From an uncultured Clostridia bacterium (lineage in GTDB: Bacteria; Bacillota; Clostridia; Lachnospirales; Lachnospiraceae): a DNA stretch of 64,000 nucleotides. A program made the position numbers and the translations under genes. The stretch lies in the NCBI GenBank assembly GCA_947089095.1, contig CAMUJB010000007.1, positions 43,787 to 107,786 of the forward strand, given 5' to 3'. The notes under the pieces are model-generated. The model made no database searches, was not told the origin of the DNA, and worked only from the letters and a program-made list of their open reading frames with translations. Shown in pieces: positions 8,710-53,506 of this stretch (positions are counted from its first letter, which is position 1; every line of letters starts with the position of its first letter).

Positions 8710-8829
8710 GTCAAATCGGATATTCGCAATCCGCTTCGCTGCTTGCTCATAACCTCATCAAGGAAGTCCCAACCCACCGCTTTCGCCTTGGCGGCTTAGA
8801 AACGGGGGACTTCCTTGATGAGGTTAAAT
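8710..8829 (+). repeat. Fam-B hairpin repeat, standard form
   Basis: ggtcaaatcggatattcgcaatccgcttcgctgcttgctcataacctcatcaaggaagtccc...gggggacttccttgatgaggttaaat. Confidence 0.75.
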
Positions 8830-8857
8830 AATAAAACAAAAACGGAGAAAAGAAAAT

Positions 8858-10008: not shown

Positions 10009-11361
10009 TTATCGTGTTACATTTTGAAGCCAACGATACGTCCGATACCGCCAAGTGGTAATCGGTATCTTAATTACTTCATCACTCAGTAAAATTATAT
10101 AGACCAAAGGTACCGAAAAATCCAGAAAAAAAGCTCCGACCGCTCCAAACGCTATCGAAATTCCCCACATAATGGAAACATCCAAAATCAGCCCAAATAA
10201 GGTATCTCCTCCTCCTCGAAAGATTCCGACTACCAAAGTAGTATTATAAGACTGCCCTATTACAAAATAAGACATGACTAGCATCATAACTCCAAGATAA
10301 TATCGGGACTCTTCCGATAAAGTAAATGCTGTCATTACAATCGGTCGGGCAAGCAGCACAACGACAGCTCCGGCAATTCCGGTAATTATACTTAGCTTTC
10401 GAAACCGCTTTCCATATTCTTTTGCTGTTTCTAATTTTCCCTCTCCTATCGCTTTTCCAATTAAAATCGCTGTAGTAGAAGAAACTCCAAATGCTACTAC
10501 TGTAGCAAGCTGCCGAACGACCTGTGCTACCGAATTTGCCGCTACAGCCGAGCTTCCCATATGTCCTAATATTGCTGCAATAGTAGAAACTCCTGCTCCC
10601 CACATCAGTTCATTAAAAATAACTGGTATGGAATACTTGACAAAATCTCGAAATAACAGAGAATCCCTTCGAAATAAAAAGGAAAAACGAAATGCCAATA
10701 CCTCGTTTTTTTTCCAATTATAAAAAATTACTACTACAAGTTCTGCTATTCGAGCCAGCAGTGTTCCTATTGCTGCACCTGCAACTCCCATTTTAGGAAA
10801 AGAACCCAGTCCAAATATAAAAAAACTGTTTCCAACAATGTTCGTTATCATAGAGATTAGATAAGTAACAGTTGCAATTGCTACCCGTTCCATTCCACGC
10901 ATGGTATTTAAATAGACCATAGTAATGGCAGAGACTGTATAAGAAAGTGCAACAATTCGAAGGTAACGTACTCCCTGTAAGATCACTTCTGCATCATCTG
11001 TAAAAATCATCATGATTCTTTTAGGCATACATTCGGTTATAACAGCAAAAAAGATTCCGACAAGTGCAGCAGTTTTCATTGCCATTCCAAATACAGCAGC
11101 AATCGAATCTTTATCCCCTTTTCCCCAATACTGAGCAATTAAAACCGAAGCCCCGGAAGTCAGCCCAAATAAAATCAGGCTCATAATAAACTGAACCTGA
11201 CTTCCTAAAGACGCTCCAGAAAGTACTTTTTCCCCGACTCGTCCAAGCATAATGACATCTACGGAAGAAATTCCGACATTAATCAGATTTTGAAGTGCCA
11301 TAGGAATAAGAAGGGTCAGCACTGCCCGATAAAATTGTTTCTTTTCCGTCTGTTCTGTCAT
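10009..11361 (-). CDS. MATE-family efflux transporter
   Basis: 450 aa, 12 predicted TM, N-terminus YRAVLTLLIPMALQNLINVGISSVDVIMLGRVGE typical of MatE. Confidence 0.85.
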   Translation of the reverse strand: MTEQTEKKQFYRAVLTLLIPMALQNLINVGISSVDVIMLGRVGEKVLSGASLGSQVQFIMSLILFGLTSGASVLIAQYWGKGDKDSIAAVFGMAMKTAALVGIFFAVITECMPKRIMMIFTDDAEVILQGVRYLRIVALSYTVSAITMVYLNTMRGMERVAIATVTYLISMITNIVGNSFFIFGLGSFPKMGVAGAAIGTLLARIAELVVVIFYNWKKNEVLAFRFSFLFRRDSLLFRDFVKYSIPVIFNELMWGAGVSTIAAILGHMGSSAVAANSVAQVVRQLATVVAFGVSSTTAILIGKAIGEGKLETAKEYGKRFRKLSIITGIAGAVVVLLARPIVMTAFTLSEESRYYLGVMMLVMSYFVIGQSYNTTLVVGIFRGGGDTLFGLILDVSIMWGISIAFGAVGAFFLDFSVPLVYIILLSDEVIKIPITTWRYRTYRWLQNVTR

Positions 11362-11411: not shown

Positions 11412-11532
11412 AGTCAAATCGGATATTCGCAATCCGCTTTGCTACTTGCTCATAACCTCATCAAGGAAGTCCCAACCCACCGCTTTCGCCTTGGCGGCTT
11501 AGAAGCGGGGAACTTCCTTGATAAGGTTAAAA
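11412..11532 (+). repeat. Fam-B hairpin repeat, standard form; its terminal ggttaaaag supplies the TAA stop of the DUF445 gene
   Basis: Sequence identity to the other Fam-B copies. CDS 11527..12429 stop codon (rc of tta at 11527-11529) lies inside the element end. Confidence 0.75.
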
Positions 11533-12429
11533 GCATAGATTGATACATCCGATAATTAGTCCAATTAAAGCCCCCAAATTGATAATGGAATGAAGCTCCT
11601 TTTCCATAACGGAAAGGGTCAGTTTTTCAATCTCTTTTACATCCATAGTACGAATTTTTTCCTCGACAATCTGACTAATCGGAATATATTCCATTATAGT
11701 GCCAAAATAGTCTGTAATAATCCGCCGATAGAGAGATAACATCAGCTGTTCTAAATTTTCTTCTGTAACAGGCAGACCTTCCACTGTTTCGGCAATGGTT
11801 TTATCTGCAAAGCGATAGACTTCTTCTTTTGTTTTTTCCTCTATTAATGCTTTGCCATGTTCTTCTAGATATTGATTGAGTTCTTTTCTTATCATCTGTT
11901 CCATTCCGGCAATCATCTTATCATTTAACATCATAGCAAGTAAGGTGCCCTGTGTTTTCTGCCGAATTACTTCTGCTACCTTTTCTCCTACAATACTTCC
12001 AAAGTCCATCTCCGTTACTTTGTGATAGAGAAGCTCTCCTACGGTTTCTATCGTTTTTGTCAAAAACTGATCTACGGTTTCTTCTGAAGTCTGTTTTTCG
12101 GCAAATTCTTTTATTGTATTCTGATTGGTAATTCCTTTTTGATAAAAAACCGAAATTTGATTTTTTACTGTTTCCTGCATCTGCTCTGATAATAAAAGCT
12201 GCTCAAAATCTTTCTTTGTCAATAATACTTCTCCTACTGCTTCTCCCACTGCTTTTGCCAGCCGTTCCCTTCCTTTTGGAATAATTCCGGGAGTAAAGGG
12301 AAGCTGCCACTTTCCAAGATAGACTGGATACAACGGTCGAAACAGCATCTTTACTGCAATATAATTGGTAAAATATCCAATTGCAGCCCCTACCACAGGT
12401 CCTGCAAGCATTGTAATATCAAAAGCCAT
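11527..12429 (-). CDS. DUF445-family membrane-associated protein
   Basis: N-terminus MAFDITMLAGPVVGAAIGYFTNYIAVKMLFRP matches the DUF445/YheB-type family. Confidence 0.6.
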   Translation of the reverse strand: MAFDITMLAGPVVGAAIGYFTNYIAVKMLFRPLYPVYLGKWQLPFTPGIIPKGRERLAKAVGEAVGEVLLTKKDFEQLLLSEQMQETVKNQISVFYQKGITNQNTIKEFAEKQTSEETVDQFLTKTIETVGELLYHKVTEMDFGSIVGEKVAEVIRQKTQGTLLAMMLNDKMIAGMEQMIRKELNQYLEEHGKALIEEKTKEEVYRFADKTIAETVEGLPVTEENLEQLMLSLYRRIITDYFGTIMEYIPISQIVEEKIRTMDVKEIEKLTLSVMEKELHSIINLGALIGLIIGCINLCF

Positions 12430-21565: not shown

Positions 21566-21805
21566 AAAGGGGACGCCAGAGAGTATTAAAAGCACGCTGT
21601 TCCGCTCTCCAGAAAACAGAAACTCTAAGACTTCTGAATTTCAATGCATCCAACCGGACGGACCGGCACGCAATTCGCCTCTGCAGGAGGCTAAACACGT
21701 GCCTTTTTCGGGCACAAGTGCCCGAAAATCCTACAGAATCGACAGAAGTCTAAGAGTTTCTAGTTTTCCTCCGAAGTCACAGCGTACTTTTAATACTCTC
21801 TGGCT
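21566..21805 (-). repeat. Fam-A palindromic structured element, copy 2 (core variant B, reverse orientation)
   Basis: rc of core ggattttcgggcacttgtgcccgaaaaaggcacgtgtttagcctcctgcagaggcgaattgcgtgccggtccgtccgg. Termini ggggacgccagag...ctctggcta. Confidence 0.85.
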
Positions 21806-22120
21806 ATATAATTCCACAATTTACGTTTCTTTTCTTTCGCGGTTGTATGGTTCTTCAATTTGTGTTTTTTCTCCTTGGTGGTTGTATGATTCTGCAATTT
21901 ACGTTTCTTCCCCTTTATGGTTATATGACTCTGCAATTTATGTTTCTCCTTAGCGGTTGTATGATTCTGCAATTTACATTTCTTCTCTTTCATGGTTGTA
22001 TAATTCTGCAATTTATGTTTCTTCCCCTTTGTGATTATATGACTCTGCAATTTATATTTCTTCTTGGCGGTTGTATGATTCCGCAATTTACGTTTCTTTT
22101 TCTTTGCAGATGTATAATTT
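21806..22120. repeat. Tandem-repeat array 1 (about 9 units of alternating 39 and 36 bp; unit ggttgtatgattctgcaatttacgtttcttc...)
   Basis: Direct repeats read from the sequence. Starts at the ctctggc terminus of Fam-A copy 2. No interspersed unique spacers. Confidence 0.85.
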
Positions 22121-22237: not shown

Positions 22238-22510
22238 CATAAATTGCGGGAATACCAGCCAGAGGGAGAAAGTAAAATGGTATCGCAGTGACTTCGGAGG
22301 AAAGTTAGAAGGTCTTAGACTTCTGTCGATTTTGTAGGATTTTCGGGCACTTGTGCCCGAAAAAGGCACGTGTTTAGCCTCCTGCAGAGGCGAATTGCGT
22401 GCCGGTCCGTCCGGTTGGATACACCGAAATTCAGAAGTCTTAGACCTTCTTACTTTCCGTAGAGCGGAACTGCGATACCATTTTACTTTCTCCCTCTGGC
22501 GTCCTCCCCC
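22238..22510 (+). repeat. Fam-A palindromic structured element, copy 3 (core variant B, forward)
   Basis: cataaattgcgggaataccagccagag...core B...ctctggcgtcctccccc. Confidence 0.85.
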
Positions 22511-22532
22511 ACCATCCTCCCCCACCATCTGC

Positions 22533-29220: not shown

Positions 29221-30984
29221 ATGAGAAAACATACGCTAGAAACCCGCTGGACACAGCAAATTACAGAAACAAATGCCTGGCAGGAATACCCTCGCCCTAC
29301 TATGGTTCGCTCCTCTTATATAAACCTAAATGGTTACTGGGATTATAAAATCAGCAGACGTCACACCTTTCCCTCCGCCTATAGCGGAAAAATCCTAGTT
29401 CCATTCTCTCCCGAATCCAAACTATCCGGTGTACAGCGTCAGTTAAAACCAAATGAATATCTCTGGTACCACAGAACCCTTACCCCTTTATCATTTTCCA
29501 AACAAGAACGCCTCTATCTGCACTTTGGTGCAGTAGACCAATCCTGCACCGTTTACCTCAACCGCCGGAAAGTCGGTTCCCATCAGGGAGGCTATCTTCC
29601 TTTTTCGATTGACATTACGGAAGCGATGCGGCACGCTTCACCCAAAAAGTCTCTAGACTTATTCGTATGTGTAACCGATCCCAGTGACACCTCCTATCAC
29701 AGCCGGGGCAAACAAAAGCTCCGCAACGGCGGAATGTTTTATACTGCACAAAGCGGAATCTGGCAGACCGTCTGGATGGAACTTGTACCGGAAAATTTTA
29801 TCCGCTATGTCAAATTCACTCCTGACTACGATAAAAAAGAAGTAAAAGTAAAGATTGCTACAGAAAAAACCTGTCCTGCTGTATTACATCTAAAATTAGA
29901 ATCCGGCGATCTCTCTTATTCTTTTACAAGCAACCAAAGCTTTCGGATTCCGATTCGGGAATTTCACGCATGGAGTCCAGAGCATCCCTATCTGTACCAA
30001 GTAAAAATCACTACAAAGACAGACTGTATCTCCAGTTACTTTGCCCTAAGAAAATGTGAAATTCAAACCGATTCAAACGGAATCCGAAAAATCTTTCTTA
30101 ATAATCGCCCCTATCCGCAGATTGGCATCCTCGATCAGGGATACTGGCCAGACGGACTCTATACCCCGCCCTGTGAAGAAGCGATTTTATTTGATCTTTT
30201 GGCAATAAAAAAATTGGGATTTAATATGATCCGCAAACATGTAAAAATCGAATCGGAACGCTGGTACTATCACTGTGATCGGCTTGGTATTCTAGTCTGG
30301 CAGGATATGGTAAATGGCGGCTCACGCTACCACCGCTGGTTTGTTACTTACTTTGCCACTCTCTTTAACTGCCTGAATATCCGAATATTTGATCGTCCTC
30401 ATGCTTTATTTTCACGCAGACAAAAAGAAAGCCGAACCGAATGGACCAAAGAAGTCGTATCCACTGTCCGCACCTTATATCCTCATCCCTGCATTGTATG
30501 CTGGGTTCCATTTAACGAAGGATGGGGACAGTTTCGTGCACTTTCAGCAGCAGAATTGATTCGCAGTCTAGACAAAGAGCGGCTGATCGATCACGCCAGC
30601 GGCTGGTTTGATCAGGGAGGCGGCGATATAAAAAGTATTCACTACTATTTCTTCTCCCTGATTCTAAAACCGGAACGGCGTGCACTCGCTCTGACCGAAT
30701 TCGGCGGCTACACTTGGCATGTAAAAAAACACAGCTATTCCTCCAAAAAATTTGGCTATCGAACTTTTTACAGCAAAAATTCCCTGTCAAAAGGCTATGC
30801 CAAATTATTAGAAGACCTGATTTTTCCTGCATTTCAAAACGGACTTTCCGCCTCCGTCTATACCCAGCTTTCCGATGTAGAAGAGGAACTAAACGGCATC
30901 TTTACCTATGACAGAAAAATTCTGAAATTAGACAAAAAAACGGTTACCGAATGGAACCAAAAAATAAAAAATCTAATCGAGTAG
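29221..30984 (+). CDS. Glycoside hydrolase family 2-like protein
   Basis: 587 aa. N-terminal sugar-binding-like region and TIM-barrel segment (WQDMVNGG). Family assignment from overall similarity only. The last codons ATC GAG TAG lie inside a Fam-D repeat. Confidence 0.55.
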   Translation: MRKHTLETRWTQQITETNAWQEYPRPTMVRSSYINLNGYWDYKISRRHTFPSAYSGKILVPFSPESKLSGVQRQLKPNEYLWYHRTLTPLSFSKQERLYLHFGAVDQSCTVYLNRRKVGSHQGGYLPFSIDITEAMRHASPKKSLDLFVCVTDPSDTSYHSRGKQKLRNGGMFYTAQSGIWQTVWMELVPENFIRYVKFTPDYDKKEVKVKIATEKTCPAVLHLKLESGDLSYSFTSNQSFRIPIREFHAWSPEHPYLYQVKITTKTDCISSYFALRKCEIQTDSNGIRKIFLNNRPYPQIGILDQGYWPDGLYTPPCEEAILFDLLAIKKLGFNMIRKHVKIESERWYYHCDRLGILVWQDMVNGGSRYHRWFVTYFATLFNCLNIRIFDRPHALFSRRQKESRTEWTKEVVSTVRTLYPHPCIVCWVPFNEGWGQFRALSAAELIRSLDKERLIDHASGWFDQGGGDIKSIHYYFFSLILKPERRALALTEFGGYTWHVKKHSYSSKKFGYRTFYSKNSLSKGYAKLLEDLIFPAFQNGLSASVYTQLSDVEEELNGIFTYDRKILKLDKKTVTEWNQKIKNLIE

Positions 30985-31068
30985 GAAAGGTTACTTTCCC
31001 TACTCGCTGTCTCAGGCGTCCGTCAGCTCCGCTGACCTATTTCATTTAAACATTCATGTGCATAAAAA
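30975..31068 (+). repeat. Fam-D repeat, copy a (aatcgagtagg-hairpin-...gctgac...cataaaaa)
   Basis: Copies at 37750, 40424 (deletion form) and 49331. Contains hairpin gagtaggaaa..tttccctactc. Confidence 0.7.
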
Positions 31069-33162: not shown

Positions 33163-33428
33163 CAAGGGGACGCCAGAGTGCTTTAGGGAGACGTGTTCCG
33201 CTCTCCAGAAAGCAGAAGTTCTAAGACTTCTGAATTTCCGTGCATCCCGCCGGACGGACCGGCACGCAATTCGCCTCTGCAGGAGGCTAAACACGTGCCT
33301 TTTTCGGGCACAAGTGCCCGAAAATCCTACAGAATCGACAGAAGTCTAAGAACTTCTAGCTTTCCTCCGAAGTCACAACGTCTCCCTAAAGCACTCTGGC
33401 TGTATTGTCTCACAATTTACGTTTCCTT
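33163..33428 (-). repeat. Fam-A palindromic structured element, copy 4 (variant B, reverse)
   Basis: ggggacgccagagtg...rc core B...ctctggctgtattgtctcacaatttacgtttc. Confidence 0.85.
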
Positions 33429-33545
33429 TCTCGATCCTCTATGAATACAGGAATCAACTTTTATGTTTTCTTTTCTCGATCCTCTATGGATACAGGAATC
33501 AATTTCTATGTTTTCCTTTTTCGAACCTCCATGGATACAGGAATC
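33429..33545. repeat. Tandem-repeat array 2 (about 2.7 units of 45 bp; tcgatcctctatggatacaggaatcaatttctatgttttcctttt)
   Basis: Direct repeats lying between the head-to-head Fam-A copies 4 and 5. Confidence 0.8.
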
Positions 33546-33555
33546 AAATAAAAAC

Positions 33556-33833
33556 TTATCGGCAGGAAAAAACAGCCAGAGTGGGGAAAAGATTCCTTGC
33601 CACTGTGACTTCGGAGAAAAGTTAGAAAGTCTTATGCTTTTGTCGATCCACTAGGATTTTTTGCCATTCTCGAATGGCAAAAAAAGGGGTGTGTTTAGCC
33701 CGCTGTACGGGCGAATTGCACCCCGATCCGTCCGGCTGGATGTATCTACATTCAAAAGCATTAGACTTTCTTACTTTTTGGAGAGCGGAACAGTGGCAAG
33801 GAATCTTTTCCCCACTCTAGCGTCCCCCCGCCC
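33556..33833 (+). repeat. Fam-A palindromic structured element, copy 5 (variant A, forward)
   Basis: cttatcggcaggaaaaaacagccagag...core A...ctctagcgtccccccgccc. Confidence 0.85.
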
Positions 33834-33871
33834 ACACTATAACACCAAAACCTTTACACCCTATCCCCCTT

Positions 33872-35170
33872 CTATAAAATATCAATATATTCCCCAGATA
33901 AAGCCTTATTCATACTGCGAACGGCACAAAATTTTCCGCACATCGAACAACTGTCCTCCTGCTCCGGTTTTCGCTCTTCCCGAATCTGCTTCGCCGTTTT
34001 TGGATCTATCGCACACTCCCACTGCTTTTCCCAATCCAATTCCCGCCGTGCCTGAGCCATTGCATCATCTAATTCCCTAGCCCCTCGAATCCCCTTTGCA
34101 ATATCAGCCGCATGAGCCGCAATTCGGGAAGCTATTATCCCCTGCCGCACATCCTCTAAATTCGGCAAAGCCAAATGCTCCGCCGGAGTTACATAGCACA
34201 AAAAAGAAGCTCCTGCCGCTGCCGCAATCGCTCCTCCAATCGCAGCCGTAATATGATCATACCCAGGTGCAATATCGGTTACCAAAGGTCCCAACACATA
34301 AAAAGGTGCCCCCATACAGATTGTCTGCTGGATCTTCATATTCGCTGCAATTTGATCCATCGGCATATGCCCAGGACCTTCCACCATTACCTGCACATCT
34401 CTCTCCCAAGCACGTTTTGTCAATTCTCCCAGCCGCACCAATTCTTCTATCTGACAGACATCCGAAGCATCCGCCAAACATCCCGGACGACAGGCATCTC
34501 CAAGAGAGATCGTAACATCATATTCCCGGCAAATTTCCAAAATTTCATCATAATACTGATAAAACGGATTTTCCTCTCCTGTCATACACATCCAGGCAAA
34601 TACCAAAGACCCTCCCCGTGATACAATATTCATTTTCCGCTTCTGCGTTCGAATCTGTTCGATTGTCTTTCTGGTAATCCCACAGTGCAAAGTTACAAAA
34701 TCTACTCCATCTTCTGCATGAAGCCGAATCACATCTAAAAAGTCCTGTGCACAAAGTGTCGCTAAATCCCGCTGATAGTGAATCACCGCATCATAAACCG
34801 GTACGGTTCCAATCATTGCCGGACATTCTGCCGTTAATTTTCTCCGAAACGGCTGTGTATCTCCATGGGAAGATAAATCCATAATCGAGTGAGCACCCAT
34901 TTCCACTGCTTTTTGTACCTTTTTCATCTCTGCTTCCTTATCTTTACAATCTTTCGAGACTCCCAGATTGACATTGATCTTTGTGCGAAGCATCGATCCA
35001 ATCCCTTCTGCATCTAAACAGGCATGACTTTTATTTGCACAGATCACAACTTTTCCCTCCGCTACAAGCGGCATCAGTTCCTCTGCTGTCATTTGTTCTT
35101 TAACCGCAACCGCTTTTAATTGTTCTGTAAGAATCCCTTTCCGTGCAGCTTCCATCTGTGTAGCATACAT
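33872..35170 (-). CDS. thiC: Phosphomethylpyrimidine synthase
   Basis: 432 aa; radical-SAM ThiC C-terminal CSMCGKFC cluster motif; high similarity to ThiC throughout. Confidence 0.9.
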
Positions 35171-35249
35171 TCTTTTTTCCTCCTGCCGATTTTTTTAGTT
35201 TTTATTTCTTCTCTTATCTAATGTGTTTCCTTCTTATTGTGCCTGTTTT

Positions 35250-36044
35250 CTAATTTTCTAAATTCCACATATGGTTCAATGGACCGTTTCCATGTCCAAG
35301 AAAAATCTCCTTCTGCAATGCTCCGCTGATATATTCTTTTGCCAGCCGCACGCTCTCTTCCAATTCCTTTCCCTTTGCTAAATTAGAAACAATCGCTGCA
35401 CTTAAGGTACATCCTGTTCCATGTGTATTAGAAACATAATATCGTTCTCCGCTTATCCAAATTTTCCGATTTTGTTTTATTTCATAAAGAAAATCATCTG
35501 CATCCTCTGCTGCATGTCCTCCCTTTAACAGAACACTGCATCCATACCGCTGACCCATTTCCACTGCCGCTGCCTCTCTCTCTGCTTTCCTTTGAATCGT
35601 TCTGTTCACTAATCGCTCTGCCTCTAAAAGATTAGGCGTAATCAGTCTTGCCATAGGAAACAATCTCTTTGTCAACTCGGTCTTTCCCTCTCTGTCTAAA
35701 AATTCCGTCCCGCTAGTAGAACCCATAACGGGATCGATAACAAGGTTGTCAGCCTGATAATAGGCAAGCCTTTCTGCAAGGATCGGAATCAAACGCTTAG
35801 AACCAATCATTCCAATCTTTACTGCATCTGGTACGATATCTGTAAAAATACTGTCTATCTGCTGCCTGAAACATTCCTCTGTCACCGGACAGACTGCAGA
35901 CACTCCTCTTGTATTCTGTGCGGTCAAAGCTGTAATCACACTCATTCCATAAACGCCATGCATCGTCATCGTCTTTAAGTCTGCCTGAATCCCCGCTCCG
36001 CCTGAACAGTCACTTCCCGCTATTGTAAGTGCCGTTTTTATCAT
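35250..36044 (-). CDS. thiD: Hydroxymethylpyrimidine/phosphomethylpyrimidine kinase
   Basis: ALTIAGSDCSGGAGIQADL motif. Start moved to the internal ATG at 36044, which has the RBS ggaggga and overlaps the thiE stop. Confidence 0.85.
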   Translation of the reverse strand: MIKTALTIAGSDCSGGAGIQADLKTMTMHGVYGMSVITALTAQNTRGVSAVCPVTEECFRQQIDSIFTDIVPDAVKIGMIGSKRLIPILAERLAYYQADNLVIDPVMGSTSGTEFLDREGKTELTKRLFPMARLITPNLLEAERLVNRTIQRKAEREAAAVEMGQRYGCSVLLKGGHAAEDADDFLYEIKQNRKIWISGERYYVSNTHGTGCTLSAAIVSNLAKGKELEESVRLAKEYISGALQKEIFLGHGNGPLNHMWNLEN

Positions 36045-36045
36045 A

Positions 36046-36696
36046 TTAGCTTCTCCCTCCAATTTCAAATAGCTGCTCACACCTTCTGCGAAGCCGCAAA
36101 ACAGCCGACTGTATCTCTTTTTGGGCAAAAACAGCTCGAATCACAGCGACTCCGCAAATCCCGGTTCCTGCAAGCTGAGCCAGATTTTCTTCTACAATCC
36201 CTCCAATCGCTATAACTGGAATAGAAACGGTCTGAACAATCTGCTGCAGTACTTCTATTTCGACAGCCTGTGCATCTGCTTTAGACTGTGTAGCAAAAAC
36301 AGCTCCAACCCCTAAATAATCCGCTCCCTGCCGTTGTGCCAGTACAGCCTGTTCCACTGTCTGCACCGATACCCCAAGAATCTTTTCTTTTCCTATCTTC
36401 TCCCTTACTAAAGAAGCCTCCATATCCGTCTGCCCCACATGTACGCCGTCCGCATCCAGACAACATGCCAATTCTACATGATCATTGATTAAAAAAGGAA
36501 CCTGATACTGCCTGCAAAGTCTTTGTACCTCCAACGCTTCCCTATAACACTCCTCTTTAGACAATTCCTTTTCCCGAAGCTGCAGCATGGTTACTCCTCC
36601 CTTTAATGCCTCCTCCACCTGCCAAATAAAAGGATGCTCTCTATCCGACCAGCCCCGATCCGTCACCGCATAGAGCAGCAAATCACCGCATCTCAT
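36046..36696 (-). CDS. thiE: Thiamine-phosphate synthase
   Basis: MRCGDLLLYAVTD N-terminus, TMP-TENI fold motifs. Confidence 0.85.
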   Translation of the reverse strand: MRCGDLLLYAVTDRGWSDREHPFIWQVEEALKGGVTMLQLREKELSKEECYREALEVQRLCRQYQVPFLINDHVELACCLDADGVHVGQTDMEASLVREKIGKEKILGVSVQTVEQAVLAQRQGADYLGVGAVFATQSKADAQAVEIEVLQQIVQTVSIPVIAIGGIVEENLAQLAGTGICGVAVIRAVFAQKEIQSAVLRLRRRCEQLFEIGGRS

Positions 36697-37504
36697 AATT
36701 TGCCCTCCTCTCCAACTCCTCTCCGCTCATCCGATAAACCGCATCAATAATCCGATTTCGATAAGAAGCATTTCCGTCTCCCTTTTCCATTCTCTCCCAT
36801 GCCACTTCTCCGGCAACCCCCATCACACAGACAGCAGCCGCACAAGCCTCCAATTTCCGCTCAGGATTTGCCGCCAAATAGGCAGCCGTCACAGCCGAAA
36901 GCTGACATCCGGTTCCTGTAATTCTGCTCATCTCGGGACGTCCGTTTCGAATAATATAACTATGCCTTTCATCCAAAACCAAATCAATCGCTCCCGTACA
37001 GACAAGAATACAATGTCTTTCTTTTGCAAATGCCTGAAAAATCAAGATCATTTCTTCCAGATTTTCTTCTGTCACCACATCCATTACATTGGCATCCACT
37101 CCCTGCGTATTTCCGCTTCCAAACACCAAAGCCTTTAGTTCCGAACTATTTCCCCGAATACAGTCAAAGGAAATCTCCCGCATCAGTGAAAGAGCCGTAT
37201 TGGTTCGAAACATACTAGCTCCAGCTCCCACCGGATCGAATACTACACAATGCCCCAATTTCACTGCCTGTTTCCCTGCAGCAAATATAGCCGGAACCGT
37301 ATGCTGATTCAACGTCCCAATATTAATCGTCAGCCCGTCACAAATCGAAGTAATCTCCGCCGCCTCTTCCAAATCATCCGCCATAATCGGACTTGCTTTA
37401 CAAGCAAGCAGCACATTTGCCACATCATTCACCGTTACATAATTTGTAATATTATGAATTAACGGCATCTTTCTCTCCACAGCTTCCAAACATTCTTTTA
37501 ACAT
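36683..37504 (-). CDS. thiM: Hydroxyethylthiazole kinase
   Basis: LIHNITNYVTVNDVANVLLACKASPIMADD is the ThiM signature. 273 aa. Confidence 0.85.
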   Translation of the reverse strand: MLKECLEAVERKMPLIHNITNYVTVNDVANVLLACKASPIMADDLEEAAEITSICDGLTINIGTLNQHTVPAIFAAGKQAVKLGHCVVFDPVGAGASMFRTNTALSLMREISFDCIRGNSSELKALVFGSGNTQGVDANVMDVVTEENLEEMILIFQAFAKERHCILVCTGAIDLVLDERHSYIIRNGRPEMSRITGTGCQLSAVTAAYLAANPERKLEACAAAVCVMGVAGEVAWERMEKGDGNASYRNRIIDAVYRMSGEELERRANYEMR

Positions 37505-37540
37505 ATCACATTCCTCCTTTTCTTGGAGAACCTCTAATCA

Positions 37541-37588
37541 AAGGAAATTCGGAATCCGCTCCGCTACTTCCTTGATAGGTTAAAAATA
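37541..37588 (+). repeat. Fam-B short (deletion) form: aaaggaaattcggaatccgctccgctacttccttgataggttaaaaa
   Basis: Shares both ends with Fam-B long copies. Sister short copies at 49195(-) and 63797(+). Confidence 0.6.
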
Positions 37589-37749
37589 AGCCGTCCCTTT
37601 CCCCGTCATACCAAACCTGCCATCCCTTCCGCCTGTCACAATGGAACCTCTACCCTCCTTCTACAATCAAACAAGAAAAATTTATCTTCCCCTGCTCATC
37701 TACCAAAATCTGTCAGCTTACTGAACGATTCCTTTGAACACCCATATAC

Positions 37750-37845
37750 CATCGAGTAGGAAAATTTCCTCTCCTTACTCGCTGCACCAAGCGTCCATCA
37801 GCTCCGCTAACATCATTCCCTTGGACGCCCGCATACATAAAAAAA
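37750..37845 (+). repeat. Fam-D repeat, copy b (inside the thi leader)
   Basis: atcgagtaggaaaatttcctctccttactcgctg...cagctccgctaac...gcatacataaaaaaa. Confidence 0.7.
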
Positions 37846-37980
37846 TGCAGACACGCAAAAAGCATATCTGCACCGTTCTTCCGCAAATGATGTCCCTACG
37901 TTGGCATTATCCAAATCAGGTTTTAAGGGTAAAAGCCTCACATGCTTACTCTCAGCCTATTCTAATAAGCTCCCCATATA
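37838..37980 (-). promoter_or_regulatory. TPP (THI-box) riboswitch with terminator-type expression platform, upstream of thiM-E-D-C
   Basis: Minus-strand aptamer GGGGAGC..GGCUGAGAG..ACCCUUAAAACCUGAUUUGGAUAAUGCCAACGUAGGGA matches the THI-element consensus. It is followed by the hairpin ugcagauaugcuuuuugcgugucugca + U7. Confidence 0.85.
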
Positions 37981-38019
37981 TTTCTATTATAACCTCTTTT
38001 TAAAAAAACACAATCCCCT

Positions 38020-38347
38020 TTTTCCAACAAAATCCTTTAACCCCTCCCAACACCATACCTCATTTGAACCTCTATTTTTTACTGAAATTATTCGAACCAA
38101 GTCCAATCAAATCCAACACCATACCTCATTTGAACTCCTATCTTTTACTGAAATTGGTCCAACCAAGTCCAATCAAATCCAACACCATACCTCATTTGAA
38201 CTCCTATCTTTTACTGAAATTGGTCCAACCAAGTCCAATCAAATCCAACACCATACCTCATTTGAACTCCTATCTTTTACTGAAATTGGTCCAACCAAGT
38301 CCAATCAAATCCAACATCGTACCTCATTTAAGCCTCTATCTTTTACT
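38020..38347. repeat. Tandem-repeat array 3 (about 4.7 units of 66 bp; caacaccatacctcatttgaactcctatcttttactgaaattggtccaaccaagtccaatcaaatc)
   Basis: Direct repeats abutting the 5' terminus of Fam-A copy 6. Confidence 0.85.
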
Positions 38348-38630
38348 CTATCGGCAGGATAAATCAGCCAGAACAAAGAAGCAATTTCTTGCTGACGTGA
38401 CTTCGGAGAAAAGTTAGAAAGTCTTACGCTTTTGTCGATCCACTAGGATTTTTTGCCATTCCCGAATGGCAAAAAAAGGGGTGTGTTTAGCCCGCTGCAC
38501 GGGCGAATTGCACCCCGGTCCGTCCGGCTGGATGCATCAAAATTCAAAAGCGTTAGACTTTCTTACTTTTCGGAGAGCGGAACGTCAGCAAGAAATTGCT
38601 TCTTTGTTCTAGCGTCCCCCACCCCCCATC
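38348..38630 (+). repeat. Fam-A palindromic structured element, copy 6 (variant A, forward)
   Basis: ctatcggcaggataaatcagccagaac...core A...ttctagcgtcccccacccccc. Confidence 0.85.
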
Positions 38631-48897: not shown

Positions 48898-49170
48898 AGT
48901 GGGGGGAGGACGCCAGAGTATGGCATTGCAGTACTGTTTCGCTCTACAGAAAGTAAGAAGCTCTAAGACTTCTGAATTTAGATGTATCCAACCGGACGGA
49001 CCGGGGTGCAATTCGCCCGTGCTGCGGGCTAAACACACCCCTTTTTTTGCCATTCAAGAATGGCAAAAAATCCTAATGAATCGACAGAAGTCTAAAAGCT
49101 TCTAACTTTCCTCCGAAGTCACAGTACTGCAATGCCATACTCTGGCTGTCTTTTTCCACAATATAGGTAT
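48898..49170 (-). repeat. Fam-A palindromic structured element, copy 8 (variant A, reverse)
   Basis: ggggggaggacgccagag...rc core A (P1 gccattcttgaatggc)...ctctggctgtctttttccacaatataggtattc. Confidence 0.85.
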
Positions 49171-49194
49171 TCTTTATTTCTCTTTTTTTGTTTT

Positions 49195-49240
49195 TTTAAC
49201 CTATCAAGGATGTAGTGGAGAGGATTCTGAATTTCCTTTG
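49195..49240 (-). repeat. Fam-B short form (reverse orientation)
   Basis: rc reads gtcaaaggaaattcagaatcctctccactacatccttgataggttaa. Confidence 0.55.
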
Positions 49241-49330
49241 ACTTAATAAAATAAAAGGCAGTTATCTTATCTTTTGATAACTGCCCAAACTAATGGTGAA
49301 TAAAATTTGTTATATTCTTTCTATTTTTAT

Positions 49331-49437
49331 AATCGAGTAGGGAAGGCTGCCTCCTCTACTCGCCGTGCTAAATGTCTGTCAGTTCTGCTGACATCGTTCC
49401 TTGAGATATCTGTGTACATAAAAAAATTCCCTGTAAA
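49331..49437 (+). repeat. Fam-D repeat, copy d, immediately beside tRNA-Leu
   Basis: aatcgagtagggaaggctgcctcctctactcgccg...tctgctgacatcg...gtacataaaaaaa. Confidence 0.7.
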
Positions 49438-49470: not shown

Positions 49471-49553
49471 TGCCGCAGGCCGGACTTGAACCGGCACGAG
49501 GTCGCCCCCGCTAGATTTTGAGTCTAGTGCGTCTGCCATTCCGCCACTGCGGC
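49471..49553 (-). tRNA. tRNA-Leu (anticodon CAA), class II with long variable arm
   Basis: Manual cloverleaf: acceptor GCCGCAG/CUGCGGC, anticodon stem CUAGA/UCUAG, loop CUCAAAA, T-arm GCCGG-UUCAAGU-CCGGC, discriminator A. No encoded CCA. Confidence 0.9.
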
Positions 49554-53130: not shown

Positions 53131-53405
53131 ATCTATCGCCAGAAAGAACCAGCTGGAGTTTGGAAGCCCTTTCTCTATGCAGTGACTTCGGAGAAAAGTT
53201 AGAAAGTCTTATGCCTCTGTCGATCTCCTAGGATTTTTGCCATCTTCTGATGGCAAAAAAGGGGTGTGTTTAGCCCGCTGCACGGGCGAATTGCACCCCG
53301 GTCCGTCCGGTTGGATATATTTTCATTCAGAGGCATTAGACTTTCTTACTTTTCGGAGAGCGGAACAGCATAGAGAAAGGGCTTCCAAACTCCAGCGTCC
53401 TCTAC
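53131..53405 (+). repeat. Fam-A palindromic structured element, copy 9 (variant A with P1 gccatc-ttct-gatggc)
   Basis: aatctatcgccagaaagaaccagctggag...core A...actccagcgtcctctacacc. Confidence 0.85.
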
Positions 53406-53506
53406 ACCATCCCCCCAGCTTTTCCATCCTAATATCCACACACCATCCCCCCCAGCTTTCCCATCTCAGTATCCACACCATTCCCCTCAACCTTCACTTT
53501 TCTCTA

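Follow-up and report, generated by a model that had tools for sequence, protein, structure and literature searches.

An apparently ordinary TPP terminator riboswitch with a leader lengthened by repeats found behind intrinsic terminators in gut Lachnospiraceae

This study concerns the long leader between a thiamine pyrophosphate (TPP) riboswitch and the thiamine gene thiM in a 64,000-nucleotide stretch of contig CAMUJB010000007.1, from an uncultured Clostridia bacterium of the Lachnospiraceae (this whole stretch is hereafter called the window). The leader and the genes that follow it lie on the minus strand. The regulated operon, thiM-thiE-thiD-thiC (33872..37504), was assigned with Pfam: thiM (36683-37504; HK, 2.4e-70) is the first open reading frame (ORF) downstream of the aptamer and is followed on the same strand by thiE (36046-36696; TMP-TENI, 7e-67), thiD (35250-36128; Phos_pyr_kin, 6e-86) and thiC (33872-35170; ThiC_Rad_SAM, 2e-192). 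The ThiM protein is 99% identical to that of the mouse-gut metagenome-assembled genome (MAG) MGBC128194. A first-pass annotation of this DNA had placed a THI-box aptamer at 37886..37976, and this segment proved to be the core of an RF00059 covariance-model match (37876-37986, minus strand) which, in the Rfam scan, scored 67.7 bits (gathering score 54.3; E 3.8e-11), covered the full model (1-105 of 105) and contained the conserved elements CUGAGA and ACCUGAU..CGUAGGGA. The aptamer thus stands in the leader of thiM, thiE, thiD and thiC, the position expected of a TPP riboswitch. Its core is 100% identical to that of relatives L004 and L005 despite ThiM identities of 74% and 72%; over 37886-37976 this identity extends to the variable P3 loop, which is unusually strong for an aptamer periphery.

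The putative promoter of the riboswitch (37986..38013, minus strand) was assigned by reading the sequence: a -10 element TATAAT (37986-37991) and a -35-like TTGTGT (38008-38013) are separated by a 16-nt spacer, and a TTGnnn / TATAAT pair occupies the equivalent position in L004 and L005. The consensus scan did not list this site because its -35 element matches at just 3 of 6 positions. At the other end of the leader, the native ribosome-binding region (37502..37530) comprises an anti-Shine-Dalgarno (SD)-like TTCTCC (37525-37530), the SD sequence GGAGG (37513-37517) and the ATG of thiM (37502-37504). The window sequence TCTCCAAGAAAAGGAGGAA is the counterpart of GTCCCAGAAAAGAAGGAGGAA in L005 and of CCCCGATAAAAGGAGGAA in L133, and the minimum free energy (MFE) fold predicts a small hairpin pairing the SD near the thiM start.

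Directly 3' of the aptamer lies an intrinsic terminator (37839..37874, minus strand). As read from the sequence, it consists of the stem-loop GGTGCAGATATGC-TTTTT-GCGTGTCTGCA(TT) at 37846-37874 and a T7 tract at 37839-37845; the terminator scan found the hairpin at 37874..37844 with 13 pairs followed by a T run, and the hairpin is also present in the MFE folds. Three relatives (L133, L004 and L005) have an aptamer identical to that of the window and a homologous terminator. The stem is GCAGATATG..CGTGTCTGC in the window, ..CGTATCTGC in L004 and L133, and GTAGACATG..CGTGTCTGC in L005, so that one stem pair changes in a compensatory manner (T.G in the window, T-A in L004 and L133, C-G in L005), and the T tract is invariant. 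In L005 the ATG follows the T tract after just ~30 nt; the ancestral expression platform was therefore already complete. Intrinsic-terminator platforms are usual for TPP riboswitches in Firmicutes thiamine operons. Compared with this standard arrangement, the window has the full-model score, the conserved elements, the adjacent hairpin and U tract and the downstream thi genes, and it differs only in the distance from terminator to start codon, which is ~335 nt versus ~30-100 nt in relatives. By these sequence features, the riboswitch appears to be an ordinary, intact TPP terminator switch, which presumably responds to its ligand.

The first-pass annotation had put the aptamer ~375 nt upstream of thiM and called this unusually far, and the measurements bear it out: ~380 nt separate the aptamer 3' end from the thiM ATG. 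For comparison, 80 thiM loci of other species were collected, the THI box was located by a regular expression and the distance from the end of the THI box to the thiM start was measured. This spacing ranges from 66 to 493 nt in 57 related loci, with a median of ~115; at 388 nt by the same measure, the window is second longest, and one locus is longer. The leader is this long because ~310 nt of repeats and spacer separate the T tract from the native ribosome-binding site. Other long thiM leaders past a TPP terminator are found in L074 (493 nt), L073 (332 nt), L067 (263 nt), L014 and L028. These hold sequence unrelated to the repeats described below, with long inverted repeats in L074, and expansion of the leader downstream of the TPP terminator seems to be common across species.

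As the first-pass annotation had proposed, two kinds of interspersed repeat expand the leader, which provides a natural case of insertions being tolerated in a riboswitch leader. Reading away from the terminator, the first is a full unit of a family that we call Fam-D (unit 1, 37749..37838; covariance model R1 match at 37749-37841, 68.5 bits, E 5e-13; nhmmer 52.3 bits). After an 'AT', its hairpin A is formed by an outer stem CGGGCGTCC/GGACGCTTG, a 5' bulge AAGGGAATGAT and an inner stem GTTAGC/GCTGAT; hairpin B (CGAGTAAGGAGAGG..TTTTCCTACTCG) and ATGG follow, and both hairpins are present in the fold. Unit 2 (37664..37748) abuts unit 1 exactly and is apparently a decayed tandem copy: its full-model match to R1 is weak taken alone (17.2 bits, E 0.07; 20.0 bits for its counterpart in strain L123) and is backed by the tandem register, and BLAST aligns 37851-37674 with the tandem array at L093:8142-8323 across both units. 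Next comes a 73-nt purine-rich spacer (37591..37663) of unmatched sequence: it has no match in the window or in loci L001-L122, nor in Rfam. The last insert (37529..37590) is a short copy of the second repeat, Fam-B, in which a T run is followed by the 53-nt palindrome AACCTATCAAGGAAGT..(CGGAGCGGATTCCG)..TTTCCTTTGATTAGAGGTT. All inserted bases fall 3' of the T tract and before the native ribosome-binding region; they are therefore transcribed only after the termination decision and cannot belong to the switch. In the predicted MFE structure, the hairpins of Fam-D and Fam-B fold apart from the terminator and from each other, as separate modules. A 19-codon mini-ORF in the spacer (GTG..TAA, 37580-37639, minus strand; MTGGRDGRFGMTGKGTAYF) stands behind a AAGGAGGG motif and differs from strain L003 by two single-nucleotide polymorphisms, both synonymous at third positions; with n=2 this is not significant and is probably due to chance. 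A 57-aa ORF (37713-37886) and the plus-strand ORFs across the region were rejected as spurious, given their overlap with the aptamer or with the repeats.

Assembly error does not explain the leader: six independent assemblies of the same species agree on it at 98-100% identity, with no gaps. Short-read contigs of the species (L003, L126-L132) mostly end within the thiM leader, 61, 195, 229, 399 or 711 nt upstream of thiM. The break points are located in Fam-B, Fam-D unit 2 or a 66-bp tandem array further upstream, as expected from the repeats present there.

Within the 64 kb there are three full Fam-D units (37749-37841, 30974-31066 and 49330-49422), one decayed unit and one solo hairpin, and a hairpin-B pattern matches three times where 0.00 matches are expected. 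The conserved-hairpin pattern retrieved 40 metagenome loci, and a profile search (nhmmer) of these and the window yielded 74 distinct units, ~88 nt long and non-coding. From 5' to 3', a unit consists of GCRCA, hairpin A, hairpin B and ATT(G). The sequence of hairpin B is conserved (CGAGTAGGGGAAG-loop-CTTCCCTACTCG); this hairpin contains a bulged G and is 97.4% paired. The stems of hairpin A vary among copies (GACCCGTGC/GCACGGGTC, CGGGCGTCC/GGACGCCCG, CGCCGATGC/GCATCGGCG, GGGGTGCGT/ACGCACCCC), the outer and inner stems both differing, and on its 5' side the motif A(A/G)AGGAAAT is conserved and unpaired. Covariation was assessed over 30 pairs in 39 distinct units. Cells are paired in 93.6% of cases, compared to 35-45% when the partners are slid; both sides change in 16 of the 30 pairs, hairpin A covaries at 11 of 13 outer and 4 of 5 inner pairs, and none of 500 shuffles reached the observed score. 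Among the non-Watson-Crick cells, G.T outnumbers A.C (76 vs 58, or 76 vs 37 when one column is left out). Rfam searches of the leader and of a tandem Fam-D array with permissive E-values returned only noise (L20 leader, 19 bits; CRISPR-DR47, 14 bits; Intron_gpII, 15 bits, E 1.9), and literature searches for terminator-associated repeats in Lachnospiraceae or Firmicutes and for miniature inverted-repeat transposable elements (MITEs) in riboswitch leaders brought up nothing relevant except group IIC introns. Fam-D is thus apparently a repeat family of gut Lachnospiraceae that has so far gone undescribed.

Each of the three full copies in the window is preceded by a different GC-rich hairpin and T run. 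In addition to the copy behind the riboswitch terminator, one (30974..31066, minus strand; R1 70.5 bits) lies behind the terminator of a GNAT acetyltransferase gene (GGGGCTGCTGCAAAAT..ATTTTGCAGCAGTCCC + TTTTT, directly upstream), with a convergent gene downstream, and one (49330..49422, minus strand; R1 77.8 bits) lies behind the terminator (CTCTGTAGAC..GTTTACAGGG + T7) of a tRNA gene (49471-49553). The unit proper begins 2 nt past the T tract and is oriented with the terminator. The first-pass annotation had recognised the copy in the thiM leader, which is real, and had it overlap the terminator hairpin, which it does not: the 'TTTTTAT' shared at the 5' edge of the family is the T tract of each locus's own terminator. 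The solo hairpin B (40415..40463, minus strand; R1 23.6 bits, E 0.003) stands directly after the stop codon of an 812-aa gene, and with its T-rich tail it scores as terminator-like (40448..40419). The protein encoded by this gene (40475-42913, minus strand) resembles the major vault protein, with Pfam matches to MVP_shoulder and, faintly, to Vault_3.

The association with terminators was quantified on 43 independent, non-tandem units scoring at least 40 bits, by asking for a strict hairpin and T run ending at most 4 nt from the unit. Such a terminator is present at the start of 34 of the 43, and several of the other nine have looser hairpins that fail only the strict definition. Control sites passed this test far less often: 1.5% when positions were drawn at random, 7.1% for TTTAT sites overall and 9.6% for those TTTAT sites that are intergenic. 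In another eleven cases the element ahead is itself a Fam-D unit, joined in tandem (..CTCGATT|GCRCA..), so that hairpin B and its T-containing tail apparently take the place of a terminator. Of 48 upstream ORFs, 44 are co-oriented. Downstream, 36 genes are co-oriented and 16 are convergent, which ties the units to the terminator rather than to the gene that follows.

Other attenuators than that of thiM, and RNA genes, are also followed by units. Rfam scans placed Fam-D directly behind a S-adenosylmethionine (SAM) riboswitch (L103; L111/L113/L116), an L10 leader (L084) and tRNA genes (L086 and the window at 49 kb). At the thiM site itself, relatives of the window clade with 82% and 79% ThiM identity carry different Fam-D-derived arrays past the same terminator, and such units are present in all same-species contigs; absence of the repeats from close relatives, which the first-pass annotation had raised, was seen only in the relatives at 74% and 72%. 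In Mediterraneibacter-like genomes, an architecturally similar unit lies past the terminator of the thiM riboswitch (TTTTTTT|GTGCG.. to CGGATAGGGG..CCCCTATCCGATT); its end corresponds to hairpin B with two compensatory pair changes, and its model scores are weak (14-19 bits). Comparison of L041 with its sister L040 shows a clean presence/absence of an 86-88-nt Fam-D-like unit exactly after the T tract of the thiM TPP terminator, and in this single pair, from the related family, there is no target duplication beyond an ambiguity of 1-2 nt. Two tandem Fam-D-like units occur at the thiM terminator in L039, L047 and L052, and a shorter form in L042. The 20-kb loci of the Mediterraneibacter type contain copies in the thiM leader only, plus one small hairpin unit in L052. 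The thiM terminator site has been hit more than once.

How does Fam-D compare with known mobile or repeated elements? Like MITEs, it forms many small, non-coding and dispersed copies; it lacks terminal inverted repeats, its ends being GCRCA.. and ..CTCGATT around two internal hairpins, and no target-site duplication was found in the L041/L040 pair of the related family. A second comparison is with repetitive extragenic palindromes (REP) and bacterial interspersed mosaic elements (BIME), together with their REP-associated tyrosine transposases (RAYT; Y1 HUH type), and with the miniature derivatives of IS200/IS605 known as palindrome-associated transposable elements (PATE). These are short extragenic palindromes present in many copies, often after genes, and some are clustered. 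The short, conserved and imperfect palindrome of hairpin B, repeated extragenically, conforms to this type, and so do the expected recognition at the level of the hairpin, the absence of target duplication and the fixed position of the insertion point relative to a short T-rich sequence. Fam-D differs in forming direct tandem repeats of a two-hairpin module of which only one hairpin is conserved in sequence, and REPs are not known to depend on an adjoining host terminator. The pneumococcal BOX/RUP, Neisseria Correia and Bacillus bcr1 elements are small, structured, modular and non-coding repeats of untranslated regions (UTRs), variable in module number and often co-transcribed. Fam-D shares with them the small size, the structure, the modularity and the tolerance in leaders, and has no sequence similarity to them; we know of none that has been described as terminator-specific.

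The closest parallel in terms of location is provided by group IIC introns, the only known elements with such a terminator-edge habit. These introns, which are mobile retroelements, occur past the stem-loop and T run of intrinsic terminators (Toor et al. 2006, PMC1702495). In both cases the order is terminator stem-loop, T run, 1-2 nt and element, in the orientation of the terminator, and it is this placement that the 34 of 43 Fam-D units display. The primers of that paper (PMC1702495) contain TTTTTTAGGTGTGCC, from which we infer an exon/intron junction TTTTTTAG|GTGTGCC, a reading of our own that the paper does not mark. The Fam-D junctions, TTTTTAT|GCRCA or TTTTTTAG|TGCACA, resemble the group IIC terminator-TTTTTTAG|GUGUG, as does TTTTTTT|GTGCG of the Mediterraneibacter-type units. 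Group IIC introns are, however, six-domain ribozymes (with domain V catalytic and domain VI holding the branch site), usually with a reverse-transcriptase ORF, whereas Fam-D is ~88 nt long, has neither ribozyme domains nor such an ORF, forms tandem arrays and could neither self-splice nor reverse-splice on its own.

The Fam-B short copy announced by the first-pass annotation was recovered as well: 37535-37590 is 91% identical to 49193-49245 and 90% identical to 63798-63839. The long copies at 1750-1917, 8710-8832, 11413-11535, 40196-40363 and 63798-63919 contain one module homologous to this short copy. Fam-B forms a predicted hairpin in the fold and, as in MITEs, has terminal inverted repeats (AACCTATCAAGGAA / TTCCTTTGATTAGAGGTT). 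Every copy starts after TTTT and none has a terminator hairpin in front, and the idea that Fam-B might be a second terminator-seeking element was therefore rejected. It looks like an ordinary palindromic MITE; as a palindrome with inverted termini after a T run, it fits the BOX/RUP, Correia and bcr1 class better than Fam-D does. All long copies end in ..GATTTGAC, and Fam-B may therefore carry an outward-reading -35 box. In one of them (40196-40363), the end supplies the TTGACT -35 of a promoter-like site (40176-40205, minus strand; TTGACT-18-TATACT with TG extension, 10/12) facing the nicotinate phosphoribosyltransferase gene pncB.

Taken together, these data make it probable, in our judgement, that an ordinary TPP terminator switch is combined here with terminator-seeking Fam-D repeats that lengthen its leader. 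TPP would bind the aptamer (37876-37986), and the hairpin and T7 tract (37839-37874) would then stop RNA polymerase; when TPP is absent, the 5' arm of the terminator is probably engaged by the 3' part of the aptamer, allowing read-through. The ~310 nt past the decision point would be passengers in the 5' UTR of the read-through mRNA and may well be neutral. Fam-D would insert, or be retained, at a site formed by a hairpin, a T run and 2 nt, treating a riboswitch attenuator like the terminator at the end of a gene, and would extend into tandem arrays behind its own hairpin B. From its distribution, Fam-D would be a non-autonomous element whose site of insertion or retention is the 3' edge of intrinsic terminators; most likely it is a passenger that targets terminators and is transcribed only on read-through. 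On the broader proposal, that Fam-D and the Mediterraneibacter-type units represent an undescribed class of ~88-nt non-autonomous elements that target the intrinsic terminator without a ribozyme or an ORF, build arrays by means of their own hairpin B and settle repeatedly behind attenuator and tRNA terminators, we remain tentative and would put the chances at slightly below even.

Several observations weigh against this interpretation. Neither a transposase nor a reverse transcriptase nor any other mobilising gene turned up in ~410 kb of sequence that carries Fam-D, and the mobility of Fam-D is therefore deduced from distribution alone. Within the Fam-D loci, tblastn with the TnpA proteins of IS200 and IS608 and with an Escherichia coli RAYT gave nothing, no autonomous element with Fam-D 5' and 3' ends kilobases apart was found, and Rfam detected no group II intron (best Intron_gpII or D1-D4 match 15 bits, E 1.9). 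A pattern scan of viral contigs and a BLAST search of plasmids and phages with the Fam-D array also found no Fam-D. Secondly, the association with terminators could partly reflect selection, insertions elsewhere having been lost, and the intergenic TTTAT control is crude. The terminator rule is not absolute either, as a Fam-D unit in L114 (10632-10722, minus strand) has no preceding terminator and lies between a TPP aptamer (RF00059, 56.8 bits, 10740-10828; region 10540-10830, minus strand) and a distant SD-sequestering hairpin. This distal hairpin, CCTCCTCGCGAAAACGAAGGAGG+TTTTTT, is terminator-like and stands just upstream of the start codon, and L114 is a case in which the insertion truly parts aptamer from expression platform. 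Thirdly, strong covariation together with a conserved unpaired A(A/G)AGGAAAT bulge is also expected of a functional RNA, and the excess of G.T is suggestive of folding of the sense strand, as RNA or as single-stranded DNA, between which it does not separate. Finally, the antiterminator is a weak prediction: the candidate pairing of ~37880-37896 with ~37860-37870 is seen only when the 3' arm of the terminator is removed before folding. The sole tblastn hit for a Y1 transposase was an unrelated IS200 in Sellimonas (L019).

These structural features bring up an alternative, namely that Fam-D is a functional RNA or single-stranded DNA module selected past terminators (for instance as a signal for the processing or decay of read-through transcripts, as a protein-binding site, or as a back-up element for pausing or termination), which would place a second regulatory layer at thiM. 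Its covarying hairpin A with the unpaired motif and its conserved hairpin B with the bulged G are what such a module would display, but the units stand behind unrelated genes, tRNAs and several riboswitches, and ~30% of the downstream genes are convergent. That members of a clade spanning 79-99% ThiM identity have kept a unit at the thiM site could likewise reflect a function; yet at this one site copy number and composition change fast, units decay, and in the related family sister genomes differ by a clean presence or absence. Strict orientation to the terminator and the prevalence of G.T over A.C are also consistent with a function, and so is the terminator-like score of the solo hairpin B and its tail; however, blocking or destroying the read-through RNA would silence the riboswitch-controlled operons, the ORFs of which are intact. 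We consider this alternative unlikely. A variant of the broader proposal would have the unit act as a functional RNA on read-through transcripts.

Much less probable is the suggestion, put forward in the first-pass annotation, that the insertions remodelled the expression platform, or that the Fam-D and Fam-B hairpins serve in the terminator or antiterminator, with altered TPP control. The 5' edge of Fam-D as drawn by similarity (repeat family D11) includes the T run, but in nearly all copies the unit begins 2 nt beyond this tract; the leader is exceptionally long, but the terminator stem and T tract are intact and homologous to those of insertion-free relatives, so the platform has not been remodelled. 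The L114 unit between aptamer and distal hairpin shows such an arrangement elsewhere; in the window, the inserts are transcribed after the decision and fold as independent modules, which leaves them no part in the terminator or antiterminator. Least probable of all is that the inserted repeats carry an outward promoter making thiM-thiC independent of the riboswitch and the switch a relic, for which the -35 that another Fam-B copy gives to the pncB-facing site (40205..40176) speaks, whereas the promoter scan found no sigma-70-like site on the minus strand within 37505-37880, the Fam-B end reads TTGATT here, 25 nt from the ATG and with no -10, and the 100% conserved aptamer and intact terminator argue for continued selection on the switch.

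The riboswitch itself adds little, being a standard TPP terminator switch with the inserts placed clear of interference. The value of the case lies in the structured repeat, which occurs with near-nucleotide precision behind terminators in gut Lachnospiraceae and which has no Rfam family and no counterpart that we found in the literature. If mobile, Fam-D would be a second and far smaller solution to terminator targeting after that of group IIC introns, and would offer a handle on how terminators are recognised, as DNA or as RNA. Gene-end terminators and attenuators are alike to it, and it has thereby generated several natural riboswitch-plus-insert constructs (TPP, SAM, L10 leader), from which it is seen that ~90-330 nt of additional structured leader is tolerated in read-through mRNAs. 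If the terminator-targeting class is real, exposure to such insertion, and tolerance of it, would be systematic among bacterial attenuators. As repeats break short-read assemblies inside leaders, riboswitch annotation in MAGs is biased, and links between riboswitches and their genes are systematically lost.

The surroundings of the leader are also rich in repeats. The pncB-thiM intergenic region measures 1145 nt in the window, whereas in L004 ~25 nt lie between the stop codon of pncB and the promoter of thiM. Directly upstream of the riboswitch promoter, between it and a TwoAYGGAY-like RNA element, lies the 66-bp tandem repeat mentioned above (38047-38347; 4.6 copies, 94% matches), and other minisatellites are present at 21817-22119 (39 bp, 7.9 copies) and 33422-33547 (45 bp, 2.8 copies). 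The window contains about nine TwoAYGGAY-like elements, most of them shortly past the end of a gene. Scores were obtained for two, at 38401-38578 (plus strand) and 48942-49117 (minus strand); the two values are 70.5 and 68.1 bits, against a gathering score of 43. Seven others are putative copies assigned through repeat families D1, D3, D5, D9 and D12, at 2073-2352, 22256-22513, 33557-33836, 43003-43262 and 53150-53409 on the plus strand and at 21598-21835 and 33194-33431 on the minus strand. The copy at 38401-38578 was missed by the whole-window scan at the gathering score and found by a small-region scan, from which it follows that fast filters lose real copies.

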